Notes under the pieces: generated by a model
What the model was told of the DNA's origin: nothing
Databases searched by the model: none
The model's input: the letters and a program-made list of their open reading frames with translations, nothing else
Made by a program: the position numbers and the translations under genes
Shown here: piece after piece, positions 3,911 to 64,000 of the stretch
How the letters are laid out: each line of letters opens with the position of its first letter
How positions within the stretch are numbered: the first letter of the stretch is position 1
Source: an archaeon
GTDB taxonomy: Archaea; Iainarchaeota; Iainarchaeia; Iainarchaeales; JAAZKV01
Direction of reading: 5' to 3'
Assembly: GCA_041653195.1 (NCBI GenBank)
Contig: JBAZFU010000002.1
Coordinates: 87,639-151,638, forward strand
DNA: 64,000 nucleotides

Positions 3911-5089
3911 ATGAGCAAAAAACACAGAACACATCCGACTTCCATGAAAGAAGTTGAAAAAAAAATTGACAAGGTTGACAGCGATGTCAAAAAAGTCGAA
4001 AAAGACGTCAAGCTTTTCGCAAAATTCGAAGGGCTCATGGCGGAAATAATAATCATACTTCTTGTAGGAATATGCGTCGGAACAATTGCAGGATTCTGGT
4101 TAGGAAGCCTAAGCGGCCAATCAACCACTCAAACAGGAACAGACAACAGCATCACTGCAAGCCAGCTTGAATCAAAAGTTCAGGATTACCTGAACACAAA
4201 CCTTTTGACTGCCGAAGCAAAAGCCAGCGGAATAAACGGCTTTATCGTTGGAGATGCATCTCAAATAGACACTGATGTTTATGAACTATCAGTTTACGTA
4301 GCTGACGAAAATAATGTTCAACAACAAATCGCAATAATATATTCTACGCCAAATAAACTAATTTTAGGCGGAGGACAAGTATACGATTTGAATACGCCAA
4401 TACCTTCTACGGGCAGTACCGATACTGACAGCGGCTCAATCGACACCGGAGCGGCATACACTCAGAGTGACAAACCAGAAGTAAAATTATTCATAATGTC
4501 ATTCTGCCCATACGGAATTCAGGCGGCAACAGCATTCCAAAGCGCAATAGAATTGCTGAACGACAAAATGAATTTCCAAATGGGATACGTAATATATTCT
4601 GATTACGCAAAAGGCTATGGCGCAGATTGGCAAGACTATTGCACCGATTCGAGCGAAAAATATTGTTCAATGCACGGAATAAATGAAGTTAAAGAAGACG
4701 TAAGGCAAATGTGCATACAAAAATATGCGCCGGATAAATTCTGGACATACCTCGATGCATTGATGACAGACTACTCAAACAGCCAAGTTTCAGCCTCAAA
4801 CATTAACGACAAATGGGAAGGCTATGCAACAGCTGCTGGAATAGACACTGCTCAAATAAAAGCCTGCGCAGACAGCGAACAAGACACTTTGCTCGCAGAA
4901 CAGGTTGCCTTAAATTCACAATACGGAATACAGGGAAGCCCTACCGCAGTAATAAACGGAACGCAATACAGCGGAGCAAGAACAGCCGACGCTTTCAAAA
5001 CCGCAATATGTTCGGCATTCACAAGCGCGCCGACAGATTGTGACACAAGTTTAAGTACAACCGGCGGAACATCATCGGGAAGCTGCTAA
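3911..5089 (+). CDS. Membrane-anchored thioredoxin-fold (DsbA-like) protein with CPYG motif
   Basis: Charged N-terminus, then one TM (IIIILLVGICVGTIAGFWLG). The distal domain has VKLFIMSFCPYGIQA in the position of a CxxC active site and a C-terminal GIQGSPTAVINGTQYSG block typical of DsbA-family proteins. Confidence 0.7.
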   Translation: MSKKHRTHPTSMKEVEKKIDKVDSDVKKVEKDVKLFAKFEGLMAEIIIILLVGICVGTIAGFWLGSLSGQSTTQTGTDNSITASQLESKVQDYLNTNLLTAEAKASGINGFIVGDASQIDTDVYELSVYVADENNVQQQIAIIYSTPNKLILGGGQVYDLNTPIPSTGSTDTDSGSIDTGAAYTQSDKPEVKLFIMSFCPYGIQAATAFQSAIELLNDKMNFQMGYVIYSDYAKGYGADWQDYCTDSSEKYCSMHGINEVKEDVRQMCIQKYAPDKFWTYLDALMTDYSNSQVSASNINDKWEGYATAAGIDTAQIKACADSEQDTLLAEQVALNSQYGIQGSPTAVINGTQYSGARTADAFKTAICSAFTSAPTDCDTSLSTTGGTSSGSC

Positions 5090-5140
5090 ATGCAGCTTCT
5101 TTTTCTTTTTTTCTTTCTTTTATTTTTATTATTTTTTTAA
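5079..5140 (+). terminator. Hairpin plus T-rich tract after the DsbA-like gene
   Basis: GAAGCTGC (5079-5086) and GCAGCTTC (5092-5099) form an 8-bp stem around the stop codon. About 40 nt of T-rich sequence follows. Confidence 0.5.
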
Positions 5141-5150
5141 GTGAAAGGAC

Positions 5151-5756
5151 ATGGCACTAACGGCAAAAAAAATATTTGAAAACAAAAAATTTCTAATACT
5201 GTTAGCGCTGATAAACTTTGCCGCAGGAATTTACTCATTCAGCTATTACGCGCCGCAACTTTCAGAAATAAATCCGTTGCTTTGGTTCTTTACGGCGGAC
5301 TGCCCGATTTACTCAATAATATTCGGAATTGTTCTGCTGATTTGGGCTTTTGGCGCGCAAAACAAAAATCGGTTGTTCAAAAAAATATTTCCCTTCATCC
5401 TGATAATTTCACTCGTTGCAAATCTAAAATACGGTTTCTGGACAATAGCTGTTTTTTTAATAAGCGGAATGACATTCGGTTATGAAATTTTTTTTGCAAG
5501 CCATTTTCTCCTGATGGCCGAAACAATCGTTTTTTTCAAAAAAATAAGATTTGAAAAAAAACACCTGTTACTCTGCCTCGCATGGTTTTTATTTAACGAC
5601 TTCCTTGATTATGGCATTGGAATTCACCCTGTTTTTGACACTGCTTACTTTCAACAAATTGCAACAGTTTCAATCGCCTCAACAATCGTTTTCTCCGCAA
5701 TTGTTTTCATTTTTTTCTCAAAAAAGGAAAAAGCAAGTAATAAAAACAAATCATAA
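5151..5756 (+). CDS. Polytopic membrane protein (possibly DUF1405-like)
   Basis: 201-aa ORF with 5-6 hydrophobic helices. The family assignment is from memory of the overall pattern only. Confidence 0.6.
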   Translation: MALTAKKIFENKKFLILLALINFAAGIYSFSYYAPQLSEINPLLWFFTADCPIYSIIFGIVLLIWAFGAQNKNRLFKKIFPFILIISLVANLKYGFWTIAVFLISGMTFGYEIFFASHFLLMAETIVFFKKIRFEKKHLLLCLAWFLFNDFLDYGIGIHPVFDTAYFQQIATVSIASTIVFSAIVFIFFSKKEKASNKNKS

Positions 5757-5838
5757 TCCCCTTACTATTGAAACACGTTAATTCGCCAGAGCTCATTTAT
5801 CCGACGCCTAGTTTGAAAAACGTGAAAAAAATTACAAA

Positions 5839-49570: not shown

Positions 49571-49945
49571 CTATTTTGAAGATTTTTTCTTCGAATCCTT
49601 TTTTCCTTCCGAACTTTTTTTCGCAGAACCTTCTATTTCAGCTTTGAGCGAATTAAGTTTTTTCAAAGTATTCTCTTCCTGCTTTTGCAGAGTCTTGAGC
49701 CTCAGTTCAACGGTTTCCATTTTCTCTTCAAGTTCCTTTTGAACTTCCTTAGTACTCTTTTTTATAAGAATATTTCCAACCGCTTTGAGAACCGATTCTT
49801 CCTTCGTTTTTTTTAATTCATCCAAAGAACTTTGTATTAATTCTTTTTGAAACGCGAACTGCTGTTTCTGCTGAGCAACACCGCCAAGGAACTGCCTGTT
49901 CCTCTCAAACTCGACTATCGCCGCTCTTTTTTCCTCATCATTCAT
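49571..49945 (-). CDS. pfdB: Prefoldin beta subunit
   Basis: Two coiled-coil arms flank VLKAVGNILIKKSTKE, in the position typical of pfdB at the end of the exosome superoperon. Confidence 0.85.
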   Translation of the reverse strand: MNDEEKRAAIVEFERNRQFLGGVAQQKQQFAFQKELIQSSLDELKKTKEESVLKAVGNILIKKSTKEVQKELEEKMETVELRLKTLQKQEENTLKKLNSLKAEIEGSAKKSSEGKKDSKKKSSK

Positions 49946-50296: not shown

Positions 50297-50431
50297 TTAA
50301 ACAGCCTTCATTTCTTTTGCAAGCGTATCCCTTGTCTTATACAATATTCTGTAACCGCACTTCGGACAGCGCACAGTTCCTTCGGCAACGCTCTGAACTT
50401 CTGCCCCGCATTTTACGCATTTAAATGTCAT
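50297..50431 (-). CDS. rpoP: RNA polymerase subunit P (Rpo12/RPABC4)
   Basis: Not in the ORF track because it is only 44 aa. The minus-strand ATG at 50431 gives MTFKCVKCGAEVQSVAEGTVRCPKCGYRILYKTRDTLAKEMKAV, with two CxxC pairs and the RCP.CGYRIL.K.R pattern of RpoP. Confidence 0.8.
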   Translation of the reverse strand: MTFKCVKCGAEVQSVAEGTVRCPKCGYRILYKTRDTLAKEMKAV

Positions 50432-50888
50432 CAAAATCACCCTCTTTCTTTTTTCCCTTAGAATCCTTTTTCTTTGGTTTTCCGCTCTTCAATTTTTTTT
50501 CAGACTTTTTGAAATCTTCAGCCATTGGAACGGCAACATCTTCCTGCAAAAGCGCCTTCTCCACTTCTCTTTCAATATCCGCAAAACTGCTTTCCTTTAC
50601 TTTGGATAAATCCATTGAACTTGTAAAAAAAGCTTTTTGAGAAACAGCTTTTCTAACGGCTTTTCCAGGCAAAGTTTCCACTTCATAGGCCCCGCCTGTA
50701 AATTCCGCTCCGCACTTTCTGCACTCAAACAATCCTGCAGCGATTCTTTTTACATTTTGAAACCCGCAGGTCGGACAGGCACTAAGGGTTTTCTGCCTCG
50801 CAGAAACCTTCAATAGCCTCTTCCTTATTCCGACTCCGTAGCGCGAACCGTAACGTCCCGCAACATCAACTTTCCTCGTTTTCCCCAT
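50421..50888 (-). CDS. rpl37ae: Ribosomal protein L37Ae (eL43) with acidic/Lys-rich C-terminal extension of about 65 aa
   Basis: GRYGSRYGVGIRKRL...CPTCGF...WECRKCG-like zinc ribbon (FECRKCGAEFTGGAY). 155 aa, against about 90 aa that I recall as typical. Confidence 0.9.
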   Translation of the reverse strand: MGKTRKVDVAGRYGSRYGVGIRKRLLKVSARQKTLSACPTCGFQNVKRIAAGLFECRKCGAEFTGGAYEVETLPGKAVRKAVSQKAFFTSSMDLSKVKESSFADIEREVEKALLQEDVAVPMAEDFKKSEKKLKSGKPKKKDSKGKKKEGDFDDI

Positions 50889-50940: not shown

Positions 50941-51732
50941 TTAAAGCTTAGAGATTTTTGCTCTAACCTCTTTTCCAACCTCAAATGCCTTTTCAATCAT
51001 TTCATCAACTTCTTCCGCCCTAAAAGAACCGCCTATTCCCTTCTGCATTGCCGCCATGTAATTGTCTTCGGTCGTTGAAACCGAGAACCTTGCTTCGGCA
51101 GCTTTTTCCTCAATGTAGGTCGGATCCAAAAGAATTTTTCCACCAACTTTAACAAATGTTGTGAGAATAGGAATTCTTTTCAAGTCAAGTTTTCCGGAAT
51201 ACTCGCCTTTCACTATTCTGTTGTTCTCATCAAGCTTAGGAATTTTTCCCTGCATAAAGCAAACAACCGCGGCAAGCGCACCGGCATCGAAAATATTTCC
51301 GTCGCCGTTTATCGCGTACAAATCAATGTACCCTATCCAAGAAAGTTCCCCTTCTTTGATGCACAACTTGTTGAAATCAATCGCCTTGCTTTCTCTAATT
51401 CCTCTGTCAATTACTCTTCCGATTTCAACTTCATTTACCGAAGGCGGGCCTATCTCAAAATCCGGGTTTGACAAAGCCAATAATTCCGCTCCGATTGAAA
51501 TTGACCCCTCATCAGGGCTATCGGGATACGGCGTGCCAGTAGCCATTTTTAATCCCGCCAAAACTTCTGTTTCTCCAAGCCTAACTCTTGCAGAACCTTC
51601 CGCGTTTTCAGCGAAACCAGTTTCGATTGTGACTTTACGCATCTCGTAAGGTTTTCTTCCGTCAAGCCTTTTTCCTTCCTTCGCCATTTCAACTACTTTT
51701 GATATTTCGTATTCTAAAACTGTTGACCTCAC
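50941..51732 (-). CDS. rrp42: Exosome complex subunit Rrp42
   Basis: RNase PH-like fold (GKRLDGRKPYEMRKVTIETG...GSARVRLGETEVLAG). It overlaps rrp41 by 4 nt. Confidence 0.9.
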   Translation of the reverse strand: MRSTVLEYEISKVVEMAKEGKRLDGRKPYEMRKVTIETGFAENAEGSARVRLGETEVLAGLKMATGTPYPDSPDEGSISIGAELLALSNPDFEIGPPSVNEVEIGRVIDRGIRESKAIDFNKLCIKEGELSWIGYIDLYAINGDGNIFDAGALAAVVCFMQGKIPKLDENNRIVKGEYSGKLDLKRIPILTTFVKVGGKILLDPTYIEEKAAEARFSVSTTEDNYMAAMQKGIGGSFRAEEVDEMIEKAFEVGKEVRAKISKL

Positions 51733-52607
51733 TTTTTCACCTTCTTTTCTTTTTCATTTTTTTCTTTTCCTTTTTCTTTCTTATCGTTTTTTTCCTCGAT
51801 TTTTTCCTTGCCTTTAATTTTTTCTTTTTTTGAAGAAGAATCTTCTCCGGATTCTGAAGCCCCGTTTATTTCACCGAGCTCGAACTTTTCCTTCAAAGCC
51901 TTTTTCTGCACCTCATAAACCTGTGCACAACCCTTCATCCCCATGGCAACAACTTTTTTCCATTCCTCTTTTGTAAGAAGTCCGTCCATCTGGAGCAAAA
52001 CTATTTCGCCGCTGTTCGGCAAAATTGCGAGCGGAACATCAACCGCATCGTCAGCATCCTCTTCCTCCTTATTCAAGTCCATTATTATTTCGTTGAAAGC
52101 CTTTCCGACACCTGTCGCAGAAACCAAATCTCTCATCGGGATTCCCGCATCGGCTATCGCAACGCTTGCCGCTGCAAGACACGCAACCCTTGAACCTGCA
52201 TTCGAATCGACAACTTCCACTAAAACACTTATTTCAGTGTTAGGAAATTGCTCGACAAAAATCGCTTTTTCAAGTGCTTCCGAAAGAACTTTCGAAATTT
52301 CCTGGTCTCGCCTATTCGGCCTCGGATTTTTTCTTTCAGGAACTGAGAAAGCAGTCATTCTATAATTTGCTTTCACAACAGCTTTGAACGGATTCTGCGT
52401 GTGCTTAGGCAACGCTTCTCTTGGCCCATAAACCGCTGCATAAACTTTGTTCTGTCCCCATTCAAGGTAAGCCGAACCATTCGCATTCGGAATTACGCCG
52501 ACCTTTATGCTTATCGGTCTCAATTCATCCATTTTTCGCCCGTCAACCCTTTTCTTATCCTTCTTGTAGTCGGGCACTACTTCCATTTTTTTACCCATAT
52601 TTTTCAC
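51729..52607 (-). CDS. rrp41: Exosome complex exonuclease Rrp41 with Lys/Glu-rich C-terminal tail
   Basis: RVDGRKMDELRPISIKVGV...NGSAYLEWGQNKVYAAVYGPRE...NAGSRVACLAAASVAIADAGIPMRDLV aligns closely with archaeal Rrp41. An extra tail of about 50 aa follows (SSKKEKIKGKEKIEEKNDKKEKGKEKNEKEKKVKK). Confidence 0.93.
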   Translation of the reverse strand: MKNMGKKMEVVPDYKKDKKRVDGRKMDELRPISIKVGVIPNANGSAYLEWGQNKVYAAVYGPREALPKHTQNPFKAVVKANYRMTAFSVPERKNPRPNRRDQEISKVLSEALEKAIFVEQFPNTEISVLVEVVDSNAGSRVACLAAASVAIADAGIPMRDLVSATGVGKAFNEIIMDLNKEEEDADDAVDVPLAILPNSGEIVLLQMDGLLTKEEWKKVVAMGMKGCAQVYEVQKKALKEKFELGEINGASESGEDSSSKKEKIKGKEKIEEKNDKKEKGKEKNEKEKKVKK

Positions 52608-53441: not shown

Positions 53442-54134
53442 TTATTCAATTATTTTTACTACAATGTCTCCGTGCGTCGCCGAATTCAATTTATTAAGCA
53501 AATCCTGTTTTAACCCTGCCGGCAACCGGAACTCTGCGGCAAGCGAACCGTCATTTAACCACTGCTCTTTGCTTATTTCAAACTTGTGAATTATTGCGGA
53601 ACATTTTCCAGCGTGCTCTGCCGGAATCTTAATCGCAAAATCAACTTTCTCCATTGAAATCGGAATAATCGGTTTCAAAGCCCTCATTATTTCCTCAACC
53701 TGTTCCTCAGTGCTCTTGAAAGCGTCTATATGAACCTTGGCCTGTTCCATTGCATTTTGGATTCTCTGCGGAGGATGCGGAATTTTTGTCTGCGGATTTA
53801 TCGCATTCCTTGAAATAAAATTAAAAATCTCAGCTTTCTTTTTTTCAAGCATAGCTCTTCTCTGCTCGGTCGTAAGCTGAACCTCGCCGTCCTGAATAAT
53901 TTTTTTCGCAACAACATTCATATCAGTCGTCAAAAAAACTTTTTGCACAACATCCTTTCCCTGCTCGTCGCCCTTTCTCGAATCCTTAAAAACTCTTTCA
54001 ACAGCGAGCAAATTCCCCAAATCAACTTCCTTTCCGTGCTTAACTTCCATTGCAAGATTCGGGTCCACAAGAAGCTCAAAAGCATGCCCGCCCTTCTCAA
54101 TTCTTGCAATAACCGCTTCGTTCATTTTTACCAT
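53442..54134 (-). CDS. SBDS family ribosome maturation protein
   Basis: [19 protein letters not shown]...[10 protein letters not shown]... N-terminal FYSH domain pattern, in the conserved position between psmA and rrp4. Confidence 0.9.
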
Positions 54135-54269: not shown

Positions 54270-54995
54270 TTATTTCACCAATTGTTTTGCTTCCTGCAAA
54301 CTCAAATTCCTAAAACCATTATCATCAATAACTGCAAAAGCAATTCTTTCAACAGAAATTTTTTCTTTCTCGGGCAAACTCCTTTCAATAGCTTTGTAAG
54401 CAAGCGAAGCCGCCTTGTCCAAAGCTTGACCTTCCCTATACTCTTTTTCCAAAAAATGAATAGCTTTTTCCTTGTTTCTTCCGATTGCAACGGCTTTATA
54501 CTGCGCCAACGCGCCGCTCGGTTCCGTTTCAAAAATACTCGGCCCCGTTTCATCAACACCACCGACAATAAATGCTACGCCGAAAGGCCGCATACCGCCG
54601 TACTGTGTGAATGACTGCTTCGTTTCCGCAATTTCTTTTGCCATTACACTAACCTGAATTTTTTCACTAAAAACCATTCTATTGTCCTGCGCCTGCCTTC
54701 TCGCAATTCCGACTAATCTTCGCGCATCACCCACAAGCCCTGCAGAAACCACTCCAATATTTTCATCAATCTTAAAAATTTTTTCAATAGACCCCGTAAG
54801 CATTAAATCGCTCTTAATCATTTTATCTGCCGCAAGCAAAACGCCGTCTTTGTAAATTATTCCAATGCCTGTTGTCCCCTGTTCAACAATTTTCGAAGCA
54901 TATTCCACTTGGTATAATCTCCCGTCCGGAGAAAACATTGTCGGAACCTTATCATAGGCGGGAACCTTTGAAGCCGGAGGGTACATAAAAATCAA
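54270..54995 (-). CDS. psmA: Proteasome alpha subunit
   Basis: YDKVPTMFSPDGRLYQVEYA and GTTGIGI blocks. Confidence 0.93.
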   Translation of the reverse strand: MIFMYPPASKVPAYDKVPTMFSPDGRLYQVEYASKIVEQGTTGIGIIYKDGVLLAADKMIKSDLMLTGSIEKIFKIDENIGVVSAGLVGDARRLVGIARRQAQDNRMVFSEKIQVSVMAKEIAETKQSFTQYGGMRPFGVAFIVGGVDETGPSIFETEPSGALAQYKAVAIGRNKEKAIHFLEKEYREGQALDKAASLAYKAIERSLPEKEKISVERIAFAVIDDNGFRNLSLQEAKQLVK

Positions 54996-55149
54996 CTCTT
55001 AAAAACAACCTTTTAATAAAAGGCTGGCGAAAACCTTAACGAAAACTTTGCTTTTTCCTTCTTTTCCTTTCAATAAATCTATTAAAAGAGAGACTTTTTA
55101 AAGGTTTTTAAAACACCTTAAAACCGCGCAAAAATAAAATTATCCGCAC

Positions 55150-56601
55150 TTAACAAGGACCGTAGTGATCTATTGAAGTGCCGGCCGAATAAGCCGCGCA
55201 ATACCAACTATAAGTATTGCCATTACACCCACAAACATTGTCGAGTTCTGTCAAACACTTCGTCGGTTTAATCATACACGCCCCTGTTTCAGCCGCACAG
55301 CTTTCAAAATTACAAAACTCTCCGCTTTCGCACTCTGTATCCTCATTACATATCCGAACCCCCTCTACATCAACAGTCCAATGAGAATTACTTGGGTGCA
55401 CAACTCCGTTTATATCCATGCAATTAATGTCCCACGCATAACCGCTATCCTCGGTAAAAATCTGCACAAATTTCAAGAAATTATAATTGCTTGTCTGCCA
55501 AACCGCCCCATCCACAATCAACTCGCAAAAATTTGTGTCATCGTGCGCAAGAGGGTTCGAATATTGAAAAACAACCGTTCCGTCAGAATCCACACTGCCA
55601 CTTGCAGGAGAACTCAAAACAACAGGTGAGGGCGGAGCACAGTCTCCAGGACAATTGTAAAAACTCTCAATGTTTGTATCACAAACCCCATTACCGCAAT
55701 TTGCGGTGCAATAACCGTAAACGCCACGCAACCCGCTTTTCGGCTCAATAGCATCAAGACCATCGCAGCAAGGCGCCTCATTTAATATTGCATATCTCAT
55801 ATCGCCTTCGCCATGACAATAACTCACCGAATTATTCTGTCCACCAGAACCAATATTACCAACTTTGTCTGTACAACGAACATTCCAATAATAAACCAAT
55901 TTTGAAGAAAAAGTTTTTTCAAAAGAATTAAACGGCGAATTATAATCAGTCTGGTCAACTGAATTGTTAATCAAAAGACTGCAGTCATAAATGCCTGAAA
56001 AATTATCAATTGCAGAATAGGAAAAAGAAACAACCCCATCAGAATCTTTAGTGCCGCTTGCGGGAGAAACTAGGTTTACAACCGGCGCATTATTGTCCAC
56101 TATTACCGGCGGTGTCGGAGAACTGTTCTCGTCAACATTCTGCTGACAATTCACAACAAGCTCAGTAGTCCCATCAACTGTTTTCTGAATACCATACTGA
56201 TCCTTATAAGTAATTTTTACGCTGTAACTTTTGAGCGTTGTTCCTGTCGGACAAGAAGGCAAATTTTCAACCAAAAAATTTTTTGACCCCCCCGCCGGAA
56301 TTTTTGCATCGGAAACAGGAATTTCTTGACCATCAACATTCAAAGAAGTAATTGTAACATCTCCAACACCCGTATTTTTGAAACTAAACAAACCATCTCC
56401 ATTAGCATCAACTGCTGAATTAACAACTCCCACATCCTGAACCGACCAATACTGCTCGGACTTTGTGGAATTAATTCCCTGTCCGGCATCAACAAAACTA
56501 GAACTCAAAACAACAACAACCAAACCAATAACAACAATAATTGCTAAAAGAACAATGTACTCAATAGTGCCCTGCGCGAACGAACGAACTTTTTTTTGCA
56601 T
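55150..56601 (-). CDS. Secreted protein with archaeal class III (type IV pilin-like) signal, duplicated Ig-like modules and C-terminal Kazal-like domain
   Basis: - N-terminus KKVRSFAQGTIEYIVLLAIIVVIGLVVVV.
- Two related modules: LVSPASGTKDSDGVVSFSYS...YYWNVRCTDKVGN and LSSPASGSVDSDGTVVFQYS...YAWDINCMDINGV.
- CGNGVCDTNIESFYNCPGDC.
- C-terminus CLTELDNVCGCNGNTYSWYCAAYSAGTSIDHYGPC. Confidence 0.75.
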   Translation of the reverse strand: MQKKVRSFAQGTIEYIVLLAIIVVIGLVVVVLSSSFVDAGQGINSTKSEQYWSVQDVGVVNSAVDANGDGLFSFKNTGVGDVTITSLNVDGQEIPVSDAKIPAGGSKNFLVENLPSCPTGTTLKSYSVKITYKDQYGIQKTVDGTTELVVNCQQNVDENSSPTPPVIVDNNAPVVNLVSPASGTKDSDGVVSFSYSAIDNFSGIYDCSLLINNSVDQTDYNSPFNSFEKTFSSKLVYYWNVRCTDKVGNIGSGGQNNSVSYCHGEGDMRYAILNEAPCCDGLDAIEPKSGLRGVYGYCTANCGNGVCDTNIESFYNCPGDCAPPSPVVLSSPASGSVDSDGTVVFQYSNPLAHDDTNFCELIVDGAVWQTSNYNFLKFVQIFTEDSGYAWDINCMDINGVVHPSNSHWTVDVEGVRICNEDTECESGEFCNFESCAAETGACMIKPTKCLTELDNVCGCNGNTYSWYCAAYSAGTSIDHYGPC

Positions 56602-56673
56602 AATAAAAATACGGCTGAACTAAATATAAACTTTCTCAATTACTAAAAAATTAAAAATAAACCAAATCCCCTT

Positions 56674-57024
56674 CTAAACAAGTTTCCCAATTTCTTTTAA
56701 CGTTCGCATCGTGCCTGAAACTGCAACGGTGTTAATTATCACTTTCTTATTCCTAACTTTCCTGATGAAAGCCAGCCCTGCGATGAGCTCTGTTTCTTTT
56801 CCGCGCCTGCACTTCAAAACGCCCTTATTTTCCCTGTACAAAACGAGCTTAGGATTTATTTCCGCCAAACCTTTCGAACCGAAAAAAGAAAGTAATTCAA
56901 TCCAAAGACCGAAATAAAAATCCTTTTCTGAAACTTCTGCATTAAGCACTTCAATCAGAATGTAACGTTTTCTTTCACGCTGAGAAAGAGGAATCGTAGC
57001 CTTTTTTTTCTTCTCGATTTTCAT
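56674..57024 (-). CDS. rnp2: RNase P protein subunit Pop5 (Rnp2)
   Basis: RERKRYILIEV...LVLYRENKGVLKCRRGKE...VSGTMRTLKE pattern. It overlaps rpp30 by 4 nt. Confidence 0.85.
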   Translation of the reverse strand: MKIEKKKKATIPLSQRERKRYILIEVLNAEVSEKDFYFGLWIELLSFFGSKGLAEINPKLVLYRENKGVLKCRRGKETELIAGLAFIRKVRNKKVIINTVAVSGTMRTLKEIGKLV

Positions 57025-57575
57025 TTCATTCCCTCAAAAACTTCTTTCCCGGATTTTACGTTAGCTCCGAGAATAATTCCAATCGCTTCGCGCATTTTCT
57101 GAGGGCGCAAATACAAAGGCTCTTTTGCGCCAGAAGCTACAAAAAATCTCGCCTTCTTTTTTTTGCAATAAGCAGCTAATTCGGAATAATTCTTCCACAT
57201 TTGGAAACGCTCAAAAGAATTTTTATCCAAAAGTTCAGAAAACAAAAAAACAGTTGTAATATTTTCTTCAGCTAGTTTTTTTGCCAACCCCAAATCAAAA
57301 AACTGTTTTGTGCCAGAAGGCTGCAAAAGAAAATCAACCTTTGCTTTAACCGCGAATTCATTCGCTTTTACGCTCCCTCCGAGAACAGCCTTTTTTTTCG
57401 AAACAAGCTTTTGAATATTTTGAGTATTTTCAGAAACAAGATAACAAGGAATCATTTCCGCTTTTTTTACTTTAAGTTCCTGAGCCTCGTTTTCCACAAG
57501 AACAACAAGCTCCTCCTTGAAATAGGCGCCGACTTGCAGAAGCTCTTTGAGCGGCTGGAAATAAACTATGTCCAT
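57021..57575 (-). CDS. rnp3: RNase P protein subunit Rpp30 (Rnp3), short
   Basis: ANEFAVKAKVDFLLQP...DLGLAKKLAEENITTVFLFSELL...FFVASGAKEPLYLRPQKM matches the Rpp30 TIM-barrel C-terminal blocks. 184 aa. Confidence 0.8.
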   Translation of the reverse strand: MDIVYFQPLKELLQVGAYFKEELVVLVENEAQELKVKKAEMIPCYLVSENTQNIQKLVSKKKAVLGGSVKANEFAVKAKVDFLLQPSGTKQFFDLGLAKKLAEENITTVFLFSELLDKNSFERFQMWKNYSELAAYCKKKKARFFVASGAKEPLYLRPQKMREAIGIILGANVKSGKEVFEGMK

Positions 57576-57656: not shown

Positions 57657-58250
57657 TTAACCGTGCCTTCGGTCCAAAGCCTTTTTTCTCCGCCTTTTTT
57701 TAGTGTTCTTCAAATTTGTCAACTTGTTTGAGCGGCCTGCAAAAGTTTTTCCTCTCTCTGCTCTTCCCTGCTGCCCGTGCAAAAGCCACTTGAAATTTTT
57801 ATCCGACACAATTTCTGGCGCGTTCCTGTCCGCCAAAACAACTTCATAATAATGCTTTTGTCCGTCTTCCCCGATTTTGTAAGAACCAATAACTTCCGCA
57901 TTCTCAAATTTTTTTGAAGCCCTCTCTTCCGCAATTCCCTGAACACTCTTTCTCCTGGATAATCTTGCCTGCCCCTGTCTCTTCGGCCTTCTTTTGTTCT
58001 TCGGCCTATGATGAGTGCCGGTTCCTTTTCTTACCCTTACTCTCGCAACAAAAATCCCCTGCTTAGCTTTGTAACCAATAGCCCTAGCCGCAGGAATATT
58101 TGTAGGCCCTTCAAGTTTTACAACAGCCCTTTCATCGCGCCTGTATTCAAGCGTGCGCTTCTTCATCATCGCGCCATAATTGTAATCATCATCGGAACCG
58201 CCCTTCCACTGCTTCTGAAAGTTCGCCTTTATGTATTTCCATGCACCCAT
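57657..58250 (-). CDS. rpl15e: Ribosomal protein L15e (eL15)
   Basis: MGAWKYIKANFQKQW...GYKAKQGIFVARVRVRKG...HRPKNKRRPKRQG. Confidence 0.93.
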   Translation of the reverse strand: MGAWKYIKANFQKQWKGGSDDDYNYGAMMKKRTLEYRRDERAVVKLEGPTNIPAARAIGYKAKQGIFVARVRVRKGTGTHHRPKNKRRPKRQGQARLSRRKSVQGIAEERASKKFENAEVIGSYKIGEDGQKHYYEVVLADRNAPEIVSDKNFKWLLHGQQGRAERGKTFAGRSNKLTNLKNTKKRRRKKALDRRHG

Positions 58251-58339
58251 TCTCGACTCACCAATTCAAATTATAAAAAAGTTCGTGAAAAAGACTTTAT
58301 AAAGCTAACTAAAACAACTCAACGGGAAACCTTTCTTTG

Positions 58340-58610
58340 GGAAGGCGCATTTCTCCCGGATAAAGCAGAACTACCCCGCTGAACCACACCAGATTTTTGT
58401 CCCACCCTTCTCTTCGGATCAAAGTGACCGCCCTTTTTTATATAAACTTTTCTCCCGCCAGGAAGAATGCGTAAAATGAACTCTGCAGGAGCAGTAGCTC
58501 GCTCAGCCGCACCCCAAAGCACCCTTGCCGAAAGCCCCGGCTTTCCCGACGCTTGAGATTTTTTACCCCGCGGCAAACTTCCCATCGATCCCCTTGAAAT
58601 TGCGCCTCTT
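58340..58610 (-). ncRNA. rnpB: Probable RNase P RNA (boundaries approximate)
   Basis: - The minus strand reads GUCGGGAAAGCCGGGGCUUUCGGCAAGGGUGC, comparable to bacterial GAGGAAAGUCCGGGCUCCAUAGGGCAGGGUGCC.
- CUGCUUUAUCCGG is comparable to CGGCUUAUCGG of CR-V.
- A terminal helix can form between GAGGCGCA (58601-58608) and UGCGCCUU (58342-58349).
- It is a GC-rich island in AT-rich DNA with no T-runs on the minus strand. Confidence 0.6.
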
Positions 58611-58630
58611 GGACCTACCAACTCAAAACA

Positions 58631-59721: not shown

Positions 59722-61536
59722 TTATTTTTTGCTCAAAAGCTCCTGAATATAATCCGCGAATTCCTTCTCGAACTTTTCAAGCCCCTCGATTTTTGCGTCA
59801 AAGATAAGCATTCTCTCATTCAACTGCCTTTCCGCGTCCGCACTTTTCTGGTCAAGCAGCTTAACAGACCCGTTTATTTTTGCAATTGAATCCTCCATGT
59901 TCTTCAAAAACTGTTTCTTGAACTCGTCAAGGATTTCGATCTTTTGCTTCAAAGTATCAAGCGACAACTGTTTCTCGGCAGCGCGTATCTTGTTCAGTTC
60001 CACTTCCATTTCCTCAAGCAATCCCTGCGCTTTCTGCATAGCAAGCTCGTCAATTCTCTGCTCGGCTTCCTGGAGCATTCCTTCCGCAATATTCTTCTCA
60101 AGCTCCAAAGTTTTCGCAATCCTGTCGTCCATTTCCTTCAAATGCGCATCGGCCGAATCAATGAATTCCTGAGTCTGCGATTTTATACGAATTAATTCAG
60201 AATTTGTTTCCGAAATCATTTCGCCCTTTGTGCGCCTAACCTCTTCAATTGCCGAAGACAATTGGCTAAGCGCAGAATCCCTTTCACCCTTCGTTTTTTC
60301 AAGCATAGAAAGATTTGATTTCAAATCAACATTGTATTGCCTAAGCTCGGCTATTTTTGAATCAATAATAAAAGCGATTTCGCGAAGCTTCTCTTCCAAA
60401 GCTTCCTTATTGCTGGAAATTATTAATTCTTTTTGAGAATCAAGAAGCACTTTAAACTTGTCAGTTTCTTTTCTAACGGCCGAATCCACTTTCTGCTGAA
60501 CCACATAATCAACATCCATTTTAAGCTTCTTCATTTCCGCAAGTTTCGCATTCATCGCGACAACAATCCCTTTTTTCCACAACTCTTCAATATCCGAATC
60601 TGAAACCGATTCAAGCGAAGCGGATTTTTTTTGAGGCAATGCTCTCGCAATCTCTTTTTGCATTTTTTGAATCACGGGCGGCGCCGGTTTTTCCTGCGCC
60701 TTTGCTTCCTGCGCTTTTGACGGAATAATTTTCTTTGAATTTTCAGACGCTACCGCGCTTATTATTTTATTCACAATCAAAGCCTCGGACTCCGCAGCAC
60801 TCGGCCCCACTTCCTCGCTTTCAAAATCCTTTTCCGCCGAAAAAAGTGGCGAAACCTTTTCAGCTTTCCCGGAACCAGTATCTTCAGTTTGTTTCTGGGG
60901 CTTTGAAAGACGACGCAACGCATTAAGAGATTCGCTCCTACTGTCCATTTCAGAATTATTTTTATTTTCCTGCGCAATGCCTGCATTGCTCTGAACTTTT
61001 TTAGCCAAATCAACTTCCTCATTTAAAGAATTCGCCTGAGCATCAATTGATTCCTCGGTTTCAGGCTTCTCCTCTTCCGCAAAACTCATTCCCGTATCAA
61101 TTTCAGAAGGCTCAATTCCATCGTCTTCGATTTCATCAGAAACTTTCGCCGCAGAAATATTCGAATTTTTCGATTTTGGAAAAGAAGCCTGCTCTGCCTG
61201 CACCACATTCTGCTGCGCGGCTTCAAGCTGCGCCGTTATCTCATCAAAAACATCTTTTGACCCGTCTTCTTGCAAAACAGAAGATTCAATTTTTGCGGAA
61301 GAATTTGGAACTGTGATCTGCTTCTGCTTTGTCCTCGACTGCACCGGAACATACTCATCTATTTTCGGAGCCGAAAAAGACGATGCGCCCTGCCTCGCTT
61401 CCTTCGTAAGCTCAAGCGCCTCGTTTTTTTCAACACCCACATCCGCAAGATTAGAAACTATTTCGTCGTCCGAAACGCCGAGCGCAATAAGCTTTTTTAC
61501 CGAGTCAAGTATGAGTTCACGCTTTCCCATCGCCAA
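59722..61536 (-). CDS. Large acidic protein: small N-terminal helical domain, disordered acidic linker, long C-terminal coiled coil
   Basis: 604 aa. The N-terminus is KRELILDSVKKLIALGVSDDEIVSNLADVGV. About 280 aa of Ser/Glu/Ala/Gln/Lys-rich sequence follow, then about 270 aa of heptad-like Glu/Lys/Leu sequence. Confidence 0.7.
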   Translation of the reverse strand: MAMGKRELILDSVKKLIALGVSDDEIVSNLADVGVEKNEALELTKEARQGASSFSAPKIDEYVPVQSRTKQKQITVPNSSAKIESSVLQEDGSKDVFDEITAQLEAAQQNVVQAEQASFPKSKNSNISAAKVSDEIEDDGIEPSEIDTGMSFAEEEKPETEESIDAQANSLNEEVDLAKKVQSNAGIAQENKNNSEMDSRSESLNALRRLSKPQKQTEDTGSGKAEKVSPLFSAEKDFESEEVGPSAAESEALIVNKIISAVASENSKKIIPSKAQEAKAQEKPAPPVIQKMQKEIARALPQKKSASLESVSDSDIEELWKKGIVVAMNAKLAEMKKLKMDVDYVVQQKVDSAVRKETDKFKVLLDSQKELIISSNKEALEEKLREIAFIIDSKIAELRQYNVDLKSNLSMLEKTKGERDSALSQLSSAIEEVRRTKGEMISETNSELIRIKSQTQEFIDSADAHLKEMDDRIAKTLELEKNIAEGMLQEAEQRIDELAMQKAQGLLEEMEVELNKIRAAEKQLSLDTLKQKIEILDEFKKQFLKNMEDSIAKINGSVKLLDQKSADAERQLNERMLIFDAKIEGLEKFEKEFADYIQELLSKK

Positions 61537-63790: not shown

Positions 63791-64000
63791 TTACTCTGCC
63801 GGACGGACTTTCCAGACGAAACCATCGTTATACCCTAAAGAGGAAAAATTATCTTGATCAAATGAAACTTCTGAACCCTGAAAAAACCCGGTAGCAAAAA
63901 CTTTTCCCTCAGAGTTAACCGCAATTCCATAACCTGCGTCATATGCCTCCCCACCGCCCCTGGACGACCAAAGGCAATTCCCATCACTACTAAATTCTGC
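63791..64000 (-). CDS. C-terminal fragment of a beta-propeller-repeat (SBBP-like) protein, 5' part beyond window
   Basis: The minus-strand frame is open from the window edge to TAA at 63791-63793. It reads ...GEAYDAGYGIAVNSEGKVFATGFFQGSEVSF...GYNDGFVWKV, which resembles SBBP repeats. It is absent from the ORF track because no start codon lies inside the window. Confidence 0.6.
   Translation of the reverse strand, partial: AEFSSDGNCLWSSRGGGEAYDAGYGIAVNSEGKVFATGFFQGSEVSFDQDNFSSLGYNDGFVWKVRPAE

Follow-up and report, generated by a model that had tools for sequence, protein, structure and literature searches.

Modular pilins, in which a conserved pilin-type N-terminus carries a grafted functional C-terminal module, are an established concept, as are the archaeal class-III-signal proteins with diverse C-termini, and both the type IV pilin PilB of Streptococcus sanguinis (PMC8179133) and the archaeal binding proteins of the bindosome (bioRxiv 10.64898/2026.04.22.720090) follow this plan. 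The payloads described in these systems are vWA or lectin domains in bacteria and sugar-binding domains in the Sulfolobales, whereas a Kazal or follistatin (FS) payload is not described there. The present study concerns a gene, here termed gene X, that unites the same type of N-terminus with a payload of this kind, and which is located in a 64,000-nucleotide stretch of archaeal DNA (positions 87,639 to 151,638 of contig JBAZFU010000002.1, assembly GCA_041653195.1; Iainarchaeota), referred to below as the window, to which all positions refer unless a contig is named.

In the archaea, a 2026 survey of protein folds listed Kazal-type inhibitors among the 23 fold groups unique to the DPANN lineages, groups that are mostly singletons, possibly derived from horizontal transfer or artefact, and unverified (PMC13607799). 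The payload of X has its best match, in both sequence and structure, in the silk protease inhibitor 2 of Galleria mellonella (GmSPI-2; PDB 4HGU/2M5X), a strong inhibitor of subtilisin and proteinase K with a known P1 residue and known targets (PMC4169406). The FS module of follistatin, FSTL1/3, and SPARC/BM-40 shares with X an N-terminal hairpin similar to that of epidermal growth factor (EGF), a Kazal subdomain, and 10 Cys, although these eukaryotic modules are mostly non-inhibitory ligand binders, in which the fifth Kazal Cys lies in a helix and not in a CGC motif. The bacterial proteins of the “Kazal-type serine protease inhibitor family”, which are either single-module (approximately 100-120 amino acids) or multi-repeat (P0005, P0007, P0018, and others), are 34-50% identical to X across the whole 69-residue unit, in which both the VCGC[DN]G.TY motif and all 10 Cys recur, but have Sec-type signals, bacterial gene contexts, and a standalone or tandem arrangement, with a class III signal in none of those examined.

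The conserved gene run in which X is found, the archaeal exosome/proteasome superoperon, is said to be a prediction from comparative genomics by Koonin and colleagues. Its order (L15e-Rpp30-Pop5-PsmA-SBDS-Rrp4-Rrp41-Rrp42-L37ae-RpoP-Pcc1-PfdB) is intact around X, except for the additional, unrelated gene at the junction between pop5 and psmA, where other lineages have other inserts.

Gene X is a verified instance of an archaeal Kazal-type domain, and a new combination of known domains, for which no second pilin-Kazal fusion was found. Sequence comparison places its first ~260 residues in a populous DPANN family, the C-terminal payloads of which are swappable; within this family, it is the Kazal payload alone that makes X unusual. 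It is moderately probable that X is a pilin-anchored, stalk-displayed protein of an Iainarchaeum/Diapherotrites-type DPANN archaeon, with a Kazal tip that inhibits serine proteases, and that it forms a unit independent of its neighbours. The gene and its modules are as follows, the coordinates and ATG start of the reading frame between pop5 and psmA being exactly those claimed in the first-pass annotation, an earlier reading of the window made from its letters alone:

55150..56601, minus strand: gene X, a modular class-III-signal (type IV pilin-like) surface protein of 483 amino acids with an ATG start, from the list of open reading frames (ORFs)
56485..56601, minus strand: residues 1-39, a basic leader, predicted prepilin-peptidase site A9/Q10 (Glu at +5), and hydrophobic N-terminal helix
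56122..56484, minus strand: residues 40-160, a pilin-like beta-sandwich domain with C117/C152, from the AlphaFold2 (AF2) model, with a predicted local distance difference test (pLDDT) score of 80-92
55831..56106, minus strand: residues 166-257, immunoglobulin (Ig)-like domain 1 of the Big_7 type, with C207/C243, from the Big_7 match
55633..55827, minus strand: residues 259-323, an 8-Cys module of the form CC..GL...CGNGxC...NCPxDC, from its Cys count and its tandem repeats elsewhere
55360..55629, minus strand: residues 325-414, Ig-like domain 2, a duplicate of domain 1, with C359/C394, from self-alignment
55153..55359, minus strand: residues 415-483, a 10-Cys follistatin-type module formed by an EGF-like hairpin and a non-classical Kazal domain, from profile, AF2, and Foldseek results
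55231..55257, minus strand: residues 449-457, the predicted reactive-site loop C449-L-T451-E-L-D-N-V-C457, from alignment with GmSPI-2

The follistatin-type module at the C-terminus

The C-terminal module aligns with the repeat units of P0005, P0007, and P0015 at 34-45% identity, with all 10 Cys aligned, and these proteins themselves score 33-128 bits on the Pfam models Kazal_1 and Kazal_2. A phmmer search of the PDB with the module recovered GmSPI-2 (5e-6) and the Kazal domain of RECK (3e-5), and a profile of the aligned units recovered ovomucoid (1.3e-11), GmSPI-2 (2.8e-11), LDTI (4e-10), and follistatin (E=1.6e-5, over profile positions 3-57), and the 59 distinct PDB sequences that reached E<=0.01 were, with few exceptions, Kazal inhibitors or follistatin. 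As modelled by AF2 (mean pLDDT 94), the module contains a hairpin (14-18/26-30), two strands (42-44 and 63-66), and a helix (53-58), in agreement with the beta-beta-alpha-beta fold and exposed reactive-site loop of Kazal-type inhibitor domains (MEROPS I1). The top Foldseek matches of this model are all Kazal or FS modules, including GmSPI-2, with a template modelling (TM) score of 0.77, an rmsd (root mean square deviation) of 2.1 A, and 47% identity, LDTI (TM 0.83, rmsd ~2 A), and the FS modules of follistatin and FSTL1, over 66-76 columns and with a query-normalised score (TMq) of up to 0.60; the Foldseek E-values are only 0.01-0.1, given the small size of the domain. The alignment with the repeat units, the sequence and profile matches in the PDB, and the structural comparison thus identify a follistatin-type unit with a non-classical Kazal half, and the Kazal-like C-terminus described in the first-pass annotation is confirmed by phmmer, profile, and Foldseek alike, even though its Pfam scores are below threshold.

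The spacing of C2 (449), C3 (457), Tyr464, C4 (468), and C6 (483) agrees with that of the Kazal framework, C1..C2-x7-C3-x6-Y-x3-C4-x2,3-C5..C6, and the sequence suggests that the C1-C5 bridge is probably substituted by one between Cys442 and the extra Cys459 of the VCGC motif, a non-classical pattern common to the bacterial Kazal units. The predicted disulfide pairs of the module are 449-468, 457-483, 442-459, 418-430, and 424-435. The loop between C449 and C457 has the canonical seven residues, and both its length and the Thr-Glu at P1-P1' are equal to those of GmSPI-2, which also lacks the classical Cys1 and Cys5. By homology with this inhibitor (C5-T-T7-E...C13), P1 would be Thr451 and P1' Glu452, and the tip of X is probably a subtilase-directed inhibitor or a binding tip. 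By contrast, GmSPI-2 is a free insect protein of 36 residues with two disulfides and a measured activity, whereas inhibition by X is only predicted, and the domain of X has the extra Cys (VCGC), by which it is probably linked to the preceding EGF-like subdomain, and forms the tip of a 483-residue, pilin-anchored archaeal protein.

The main rival to the inhibitor reading retains the same architecture, but takes the FS/Kazal tip as a non-inhibitory binding module, like those of follistatin, agrin, and SPARC, which would make X an adhesin comparable with its propeller, Glug, and LamG paralogues. The match of the whole 69-residue unit to follistatin-type FS modules is consistent with this explanation, as are the other payloads of the family, which are all adhesin or lectin-like domains, and the wide variation of the reactive-loop residues among the bacterial units (CPDVWDPVC, for example). 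However, true inhibitors (GmSPI-2, LDTI, and ovomucoid) head the matches in both sequence and structure, the loop length and the Thr-Glu pair are kept, and hypervariable loops are typical of real Kazal inhibitors too, so a purely adhesive tip is considered possible but rather unlikely. Whether X is part of a filament or anchored in the membrane is a separate point.

All the named relatives of the 69-residue module are bacterial (Planctomycetota, Verrucomicrobiota, Deltaproteobacteria, Maricaulis, Hyphococcus, and Ca. Electronema), and P0005 and P0007 are found in bacterial gene contexts, which points to a captured bacterial module. This capture was not recent, because the GC content and the GC content at third codon positions (GC3) of both X and its Kazal part match those of the neighbouring genes.

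The pilin-type N-terminus, the putative stalk, and the family

The N-terminus of X consists of MQKKVRSFA followed, after the predicted cleavage site, by QGTIEYIVLLAIIVVIGLVVVVL. The leader is short and basic, positions -1, +1, and +5 are occupied by a small residue, Gln, and Glu, respectively, and there is a long hydrophobic helix, which AF2 places at residues 13-39. The class III motif is QxSxExxxL (Pfam PF04021), and on this pattern cleavage would be expected at A9/Q10. The Q10-G-T-I-E-Y15 segment does not vary among the 13 aligned members of the family, and the Class_IIIsignal model matches 10 of the 13 aligned relatives at E<=0.01, with P0110 exceeding the cutoff at 26.0 bits. The class III (prepilin-peptidase type) signal reported in the first-pass annotation is thus present, with a sub-threshold Pfam score in X itself. 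In the AF2 model, residues 10-160 (pLDDT 80-92) comprise a beta-rich head against which the N-terminal helix is packed, and this pilin-like domain is common to 29 other class-III-signal proteins, at 28-51% identity.

The duplicated Ig-like module, which had also been predicted, is supported by an internal repeat of residues ~174-250 and ~333-407 (41% identity over 78 amino acids, E=2e-12). The Big_7 model scores above its gathering threshold (GA) in relatives of X, and many giant Ig-repeat proteins align to Ig-like domain 1. The CGNGVCD...CPGDC motif is equally real, and is part of a unit of ~60 amino acids with eight Cys (residues 259-323), of which P0088, P0112, P0132, and P0146 each have 3-4 copies in tandem. 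None of the Pfam models matched this unit, which is a candidate new domain family. A general scan of NCBIfam gave no useful match. The 24 Cys of X are distributed over the modules as 2, 2, 8, 2, and 10, and the even number in every module fits an extracellular, disulfide-bonded protein.

The four proteins with tandem copies of the 8-Cys unit are secreted or membrane-anchored, and the repeat has the pattern C..EGE…CC.GL..I.P…G.CT..CGNG.C…E…NCP.DC. A 432-residue protein of the same genome (13736-15034, plus strand), a Cys-rich surface protein with a lipobox-like N-terminus (…FVSGC), contains a CGNDICDYGEN…CPQD motif that resembles the 8-Cys module of X, in addition to matches to a MopE metal-binding motif and LamG.

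An exhaustive HMMER search with X returned 3,117 proteins at E<=0.001, which sort by module into four groups, formed by multi-Kazal repeat, giant Ig-repeat, pilin plus Ig, and 8-Cys-repeat proteins. The class III motif was found in 30 of the 160 sequences compared, and only X has the Kazal motif in addition. The other payloads of the family include SBBP or NHL propellers, FG-GAP, Glug, beta-helix, LamG, and Lcl_C domains. A metagenome scan added 47 further loci of the family, with a Kazal or 8-Cys module in none of them. Some of the family loci are tandem arrays, and the metagenomic locus L091 links the family to the type IV filament machinery, as two members there have a T2SSE-family ATPase (E=6e-17) immediately upstream. 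In the sister genome (L001), three modular class-III-signal genes are found around the superoperon, encoding P0006 (LamG), P0004 (Glug), and a 603-residue Glug protein.

It is also conceivable that X is not a filament subunit, and that, once its class III signal has been processed, it remains a membrane-anchored monomer or enters a bindosome-like assembly, with the helix acting only as an anchor. The genes for the archaeal class-III-signal proteins that bind sugars lie apart from pilus loci (bioRxiv 10.64898/2026.04.22.720090), and X lies among housekeeping genes, with no pilus machinery in the window. The tandem arrays of relatives beside a T2SSE ATPase nevertheless speak for a filament, as do two hallmarks of pilins, the Glu at +5 and the fold of helix and beta-sandwich. 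Given this, the anchor-only arrangement is regarded as a serious possibility, but a less than even one.

The proposed mode of action of gene X

In the preferred reading, a class III signal peptidase would remove the nine-residue leader at A9/Q10, and X would be anchored by its hydrophobic helix, either to the membrane or, as a minor or tip subunit, within a type IV filament. A disulfide-stabilised stalk would be formed by the Ig and Cys-rich modules, from which the distal Kazal domain could offer a rigid canonical loop (C449...C457, with Thr451 at P1), in the manner of a substrate, to the active sites of extracellular serine proteases. The most likely targets would be subtilisin-like enzymes, as for GmSPI-2, and the expected outcome is protection of the cell surface or of a cell-cell interface. 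X would be an independent transcription unit at an insertion-tolerant boundary between pop5 and psmA, and it has no functional coupling with RNase P, the proteasome, or the exosome.

A number of observations weigh against this reading. The isolated module scores 14.7 bits on Kazal_2 (E=0.035; GA 22.8) and 8.3 bits on Kazal_1 (GA 21), both under threshold, and the Kazal models of Pfam had no match at E<=0.1 in full-length X. The classical Kazal Cys5 is absent, and a third disulfide could only be made through the extra Cys of the VCGCNG motif. Many Kazal and FS domains, such as those of follistatin, agrin, and SPARC, are not inhibitors, and we know of no functionally characterised bacterial member of this Kazal module family. 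At the other end of the protein, Class_IIIsignal gives 16.7-18.7 bits, against a GA of 23.7, and Big_7 reaches 19-22.5 bits, against 24.1. The full-length AF2 model is poor beyond residue ~255, where its alignment has no coverage, and a Foldseek search with this model found a weak match to a Sulfolobus AAP pilin (8q30; E=5e-4, target-normalised TMt 0.39, rank 45) and, otherwise, generic tandem-Ig adhesins. The 64-kb window contains no prepilin peptidase, assembly ATPase, platform protein, or other class III ORF. The 24 Cys amount to 12 disulfides that a DPANN cell would have to form in anoxic habitats, and the promoter and terminator assignments on which the transcriptional independence of X depends (see below) were read by eye.

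The junction between pop5 and psmA

The genes that surround X in the conserved run, together with the transcription signals of the junction and a second gene of the same family at the edge of the window, are as follows:

57657-58250: L15e, from Pfam
57021-57575: Rpp30, from Pfam
56674..57024, minus strand: pop5 (RNase P subunit), the upstream neighbour of X (PF01900, E=1.5e-16)
54270..54995, minus strand: psmA (proteasome alpha subunit), the downstream neighbour of X (PF00227, E=1.7e-52)
53442-54134: SBDS, from Pfam
50297-50440: RpoP, a 47-residue zinc-ribbon ORF, from its position and its synteny with the Pfam-labelled relative L001
50001-50237: Pcc1, a 78-residue ORF, from the same evidence
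49571-49945: prefoldin beta, a 124-residue ORF, from the same evidence
56645..56662, minus strand: T-rich tract after the pop5 stop codon, a candidate archaeal terminator, read directly
56622..56634, minus strand: promoter-like AAAG-TTTATATTT box, ~20 nucleotides upstream of the ATG of X, read directly, with a putative TATA or B recognition element (BRE) role
55130..55140, minus strand: T-run right after the stop codon of X, a candidate terminator, read directly
55094..55106, minus strand: conserved AACCTTTAAAAAG box upstream of psmA, a putative part of the promoter region of psmA itself
63791..64000, minus strand: 3' end of a paralogous modular pilin (P0002-type, with pilin, Ig, and beta-propeller repeats), which runs off the window, from contig L085

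The order given by the Pfam labels around X is L15e, Rpp30, Pop5, [X], PsmA, SBDS, Rrp4, Rrp41, Rrp42, and L37ae. Given that the flanking genes are identified by Pfam, and by their match to the syntenic relative, the superoperon context of X is real, and the exosome superoperon order proposed earlier is upheld, with RpoP, Pcc1, and prefoldin beta placed by position and synteny. The overlap between rpp30 and pop5 in the window is four nucleotides. The start of psmA is likely to be the ATG at 54986, the resulting 238-residue version being the form called in other assemblies.

Misassembly of the X locus, at 55.0-56.7 kb, is effectively excluded by three independent contigs from two other samples, which are 100% identical to the window over the junctions of X with pop5 and psmA. 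Two of these contigs come from Logan (SRR18595300); one (L085) corresponds to window positions 64000-56512, which take in pop5 and 30 codons at the start of X, and the other (L086) to positions 56518-50916, with the remainder of X, psmA, SBDS, rrp4, rrp41, and rrp42. The third, from a Joint Genome Institute (JGI) metagenome (3300035208; L087), corresponds to positions 56273-53852, and extends over residues ~110-483 of X and the whole of psmA into the beginning of SBDS. Both Logan contigs break within the signal-coding sequence of X (codon ~30), which is shared with the P0002-type paralogue ~7 kb away, a pattern that a short-k assembler would be expected to give at a repeat. Beyond the window, L085 (positions 1-1935 of the contig) contains an ORF of at least 644 amino acids, identical to P0002, on the same strand as X. 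Searches for exact sequence copies of P0002, P0003, and the protein at the left edge of the window had no match.

These breaks at codon ~30, together with the bacterial affinities of the Kazal module, might suggest that X is a chimera created in assembly, or that it belongs to a foreign island or mobile element of recent insertion. However, the breaks are of the repeat type, with both sides 100% identical to the window, the JGI contig runs from X into psmA and SBDS, and the GC and GC3 of X equal those of its neighbours. The only direct or inverted repeats that flank X are chance matches of 12-16 nucleotides, with no mobile-element signature, and a tRNA search found none, while an Rfam scan of 49-64 kb had no match. 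In addition, the same slot holds an orthologue in the closest relative (L002). On these grounds, the explanation was rejected as highly improbable.

The slot was surveyed in the loci around PsmA relatives from species-representative genomes, by tblastn and ORF maps, and 11 close relatives of the Iainarchaeum type (PsmA 69-83% identical) were informative. In eight of them (L004, L005, and L008-L013), pop5 and psmA are direct neighbours, ~80-250 bp apart, and the slot is filled in the other three (L002, L006, and L007), with differing contents. The closest relative, L002 (=L001; PsmA 83% identical), has the orthologue P0004 in the slot, the first ~270 residues of which are ~46% identical to X, compared with 79-87% for the flanking proteins, and Glug repeats take the place of the Cys-rich, Ig, and Kazal modules at its C-terminus. 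In L006 (2976-4074), the slot contains three small genes, one ParE-like and one DUF2683, and a 556-residue class-III-signal protein with a Gly_rich_2 payload, and in L007 (~4990-5800, minus strand), an unrelated ORF of ~266 amino acids on the opposite strand, with no Pfam match. Among the more distant DPANN-type loci, the three in which Pop5 was matched (L014, L045, and L071) have no insert. This gene is not a feature of the junction in most archaea. The junction of Methanosphaera contains adenylosuccinate lyase and an NTP-transferase, and none of the 47 metagenomic family members adjoins pop5 or psmA.

Pop5 is identical in L006 and L007, with a differing junction, which represents strain-level turnover between pop5 and psmA. 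The junction between rpp30 and pop5 also has inserts, in the form of a 162-residue gene in L004 (5084-5572) and a 224-residue gene in L007 (3934-4608).

The AAAG-TTTATATTT box is conserved upstream of the positional orthologue P0004 in L002, and boxes of the AACCTTTAAAAAG type are found ~110-140 nucleotides upstream of psmA in L002, L004, L006-L008, and L010-L013, irrespective of the presence of an insert. This conservation suggests that the AACCTTTAAAAAG box may be a promoter or leader element for the psmA-SBDS-exosome unit. The TATA-like box of X, the T-runs, the psmA box, and the unrelated inserts found elsewhere suggest a transcription-unit boundary, rather than the interior of an operon, at which insertions would be tolerated, and X is best read from these signals as a putative self-contained transcription unit. 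The first-pass annotation had considered an accessory gene in this superoperon to be unexpected; the insertion itself is real, but the surprise is reduced by the likely presence of a transcription-unit boundary, with inserts in other lineages, at this junction.

A functional coupling of X with the superoperon, either as an inhibitor that regulates the proteasome or through co-regulation with the RNA-processing genes, would draw only on its same-strand adjacency to psmA. Against this, X is secreted and disulfide-rich, most close relatives have the slot without X, the payload of the sister genome in the same slot is Glug and not Kazal, and X has its own TATA-like box, while psmA keeps its conserved upstream box. 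Kazal inhibitors, moreover, target serine proteases, whereas the proteasome is an intracellular threonine protease. The proteasome-regulating role was therefore rejected, and any such coupling is hardly credible.

A broader scenario, which is tentative and on the whole rather doubtful, is that a DPANN archaeon captured a bacterial follistatin/Kazal module, and displays it on a pilin-like stalk to shield the interface between symbiont and host or environment from subtilisin-like proteases. The junction between pop5 and psmA would then be a recurrent site of landing and payload swapping, with a Kazal payload in X, a Glug payload in the gene of the sister genome, and a glycine-rich one in a third genome. 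The EPI1 and EPI10 proteins of Phytophthora offer a likeness in function, being described, in a summary (PMC9904509), as secreted Kazal-like inhibitors used by a host-dependent organism against the extracellular subtilases of its partner. They are, however, soluble effectors of a eukaryote, and the analogy is functional only.

Kazal-type folds have so far been a footnote in the archaea, and X provides a checked example, with independent assembly, a high-confidence model, and bacterial affinities. It changes no major concept, but extends the idea of the modular pilin to a protease-inhibitor payload, and suggests a way in which small, host-dependent archaea might defend or manipulate the cell-cell interface. 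The archaeal exosome/proteasome run, in turn, is not inviolate, given that its junction between pop5 and psmA takes lineage-specific genes.

Other genes of the run also have unusual features. The L37ae gene (50421-50888, minus strand) is unusually long, encoding 155 amino acids with a C-terminal extension that exceeds the threshold of SRP54_N (25.0 bits, GA 22.4) and finishes with a Lys-rich tail, and Rrp41 (51729-52607, minus strand) has a long Lys/Glu-rich C-terminal tail. A 100-residue ORF of odd composition (58319-58621, minus strand) lies in the rather GC-rich gap between L15e and a TtuA-like gene, where genes of 88-98 residues are called in relatives (L001 8029-8325 and L085 7141-7407), and Rfam has no RNA family. 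An acidic protein of 604 residues with a coiled-coil appearance and no Pfam match is encoded at 59722-61536 (minus strand), and its position is kept in relatives (613 residues in L001 and 602 in L085).

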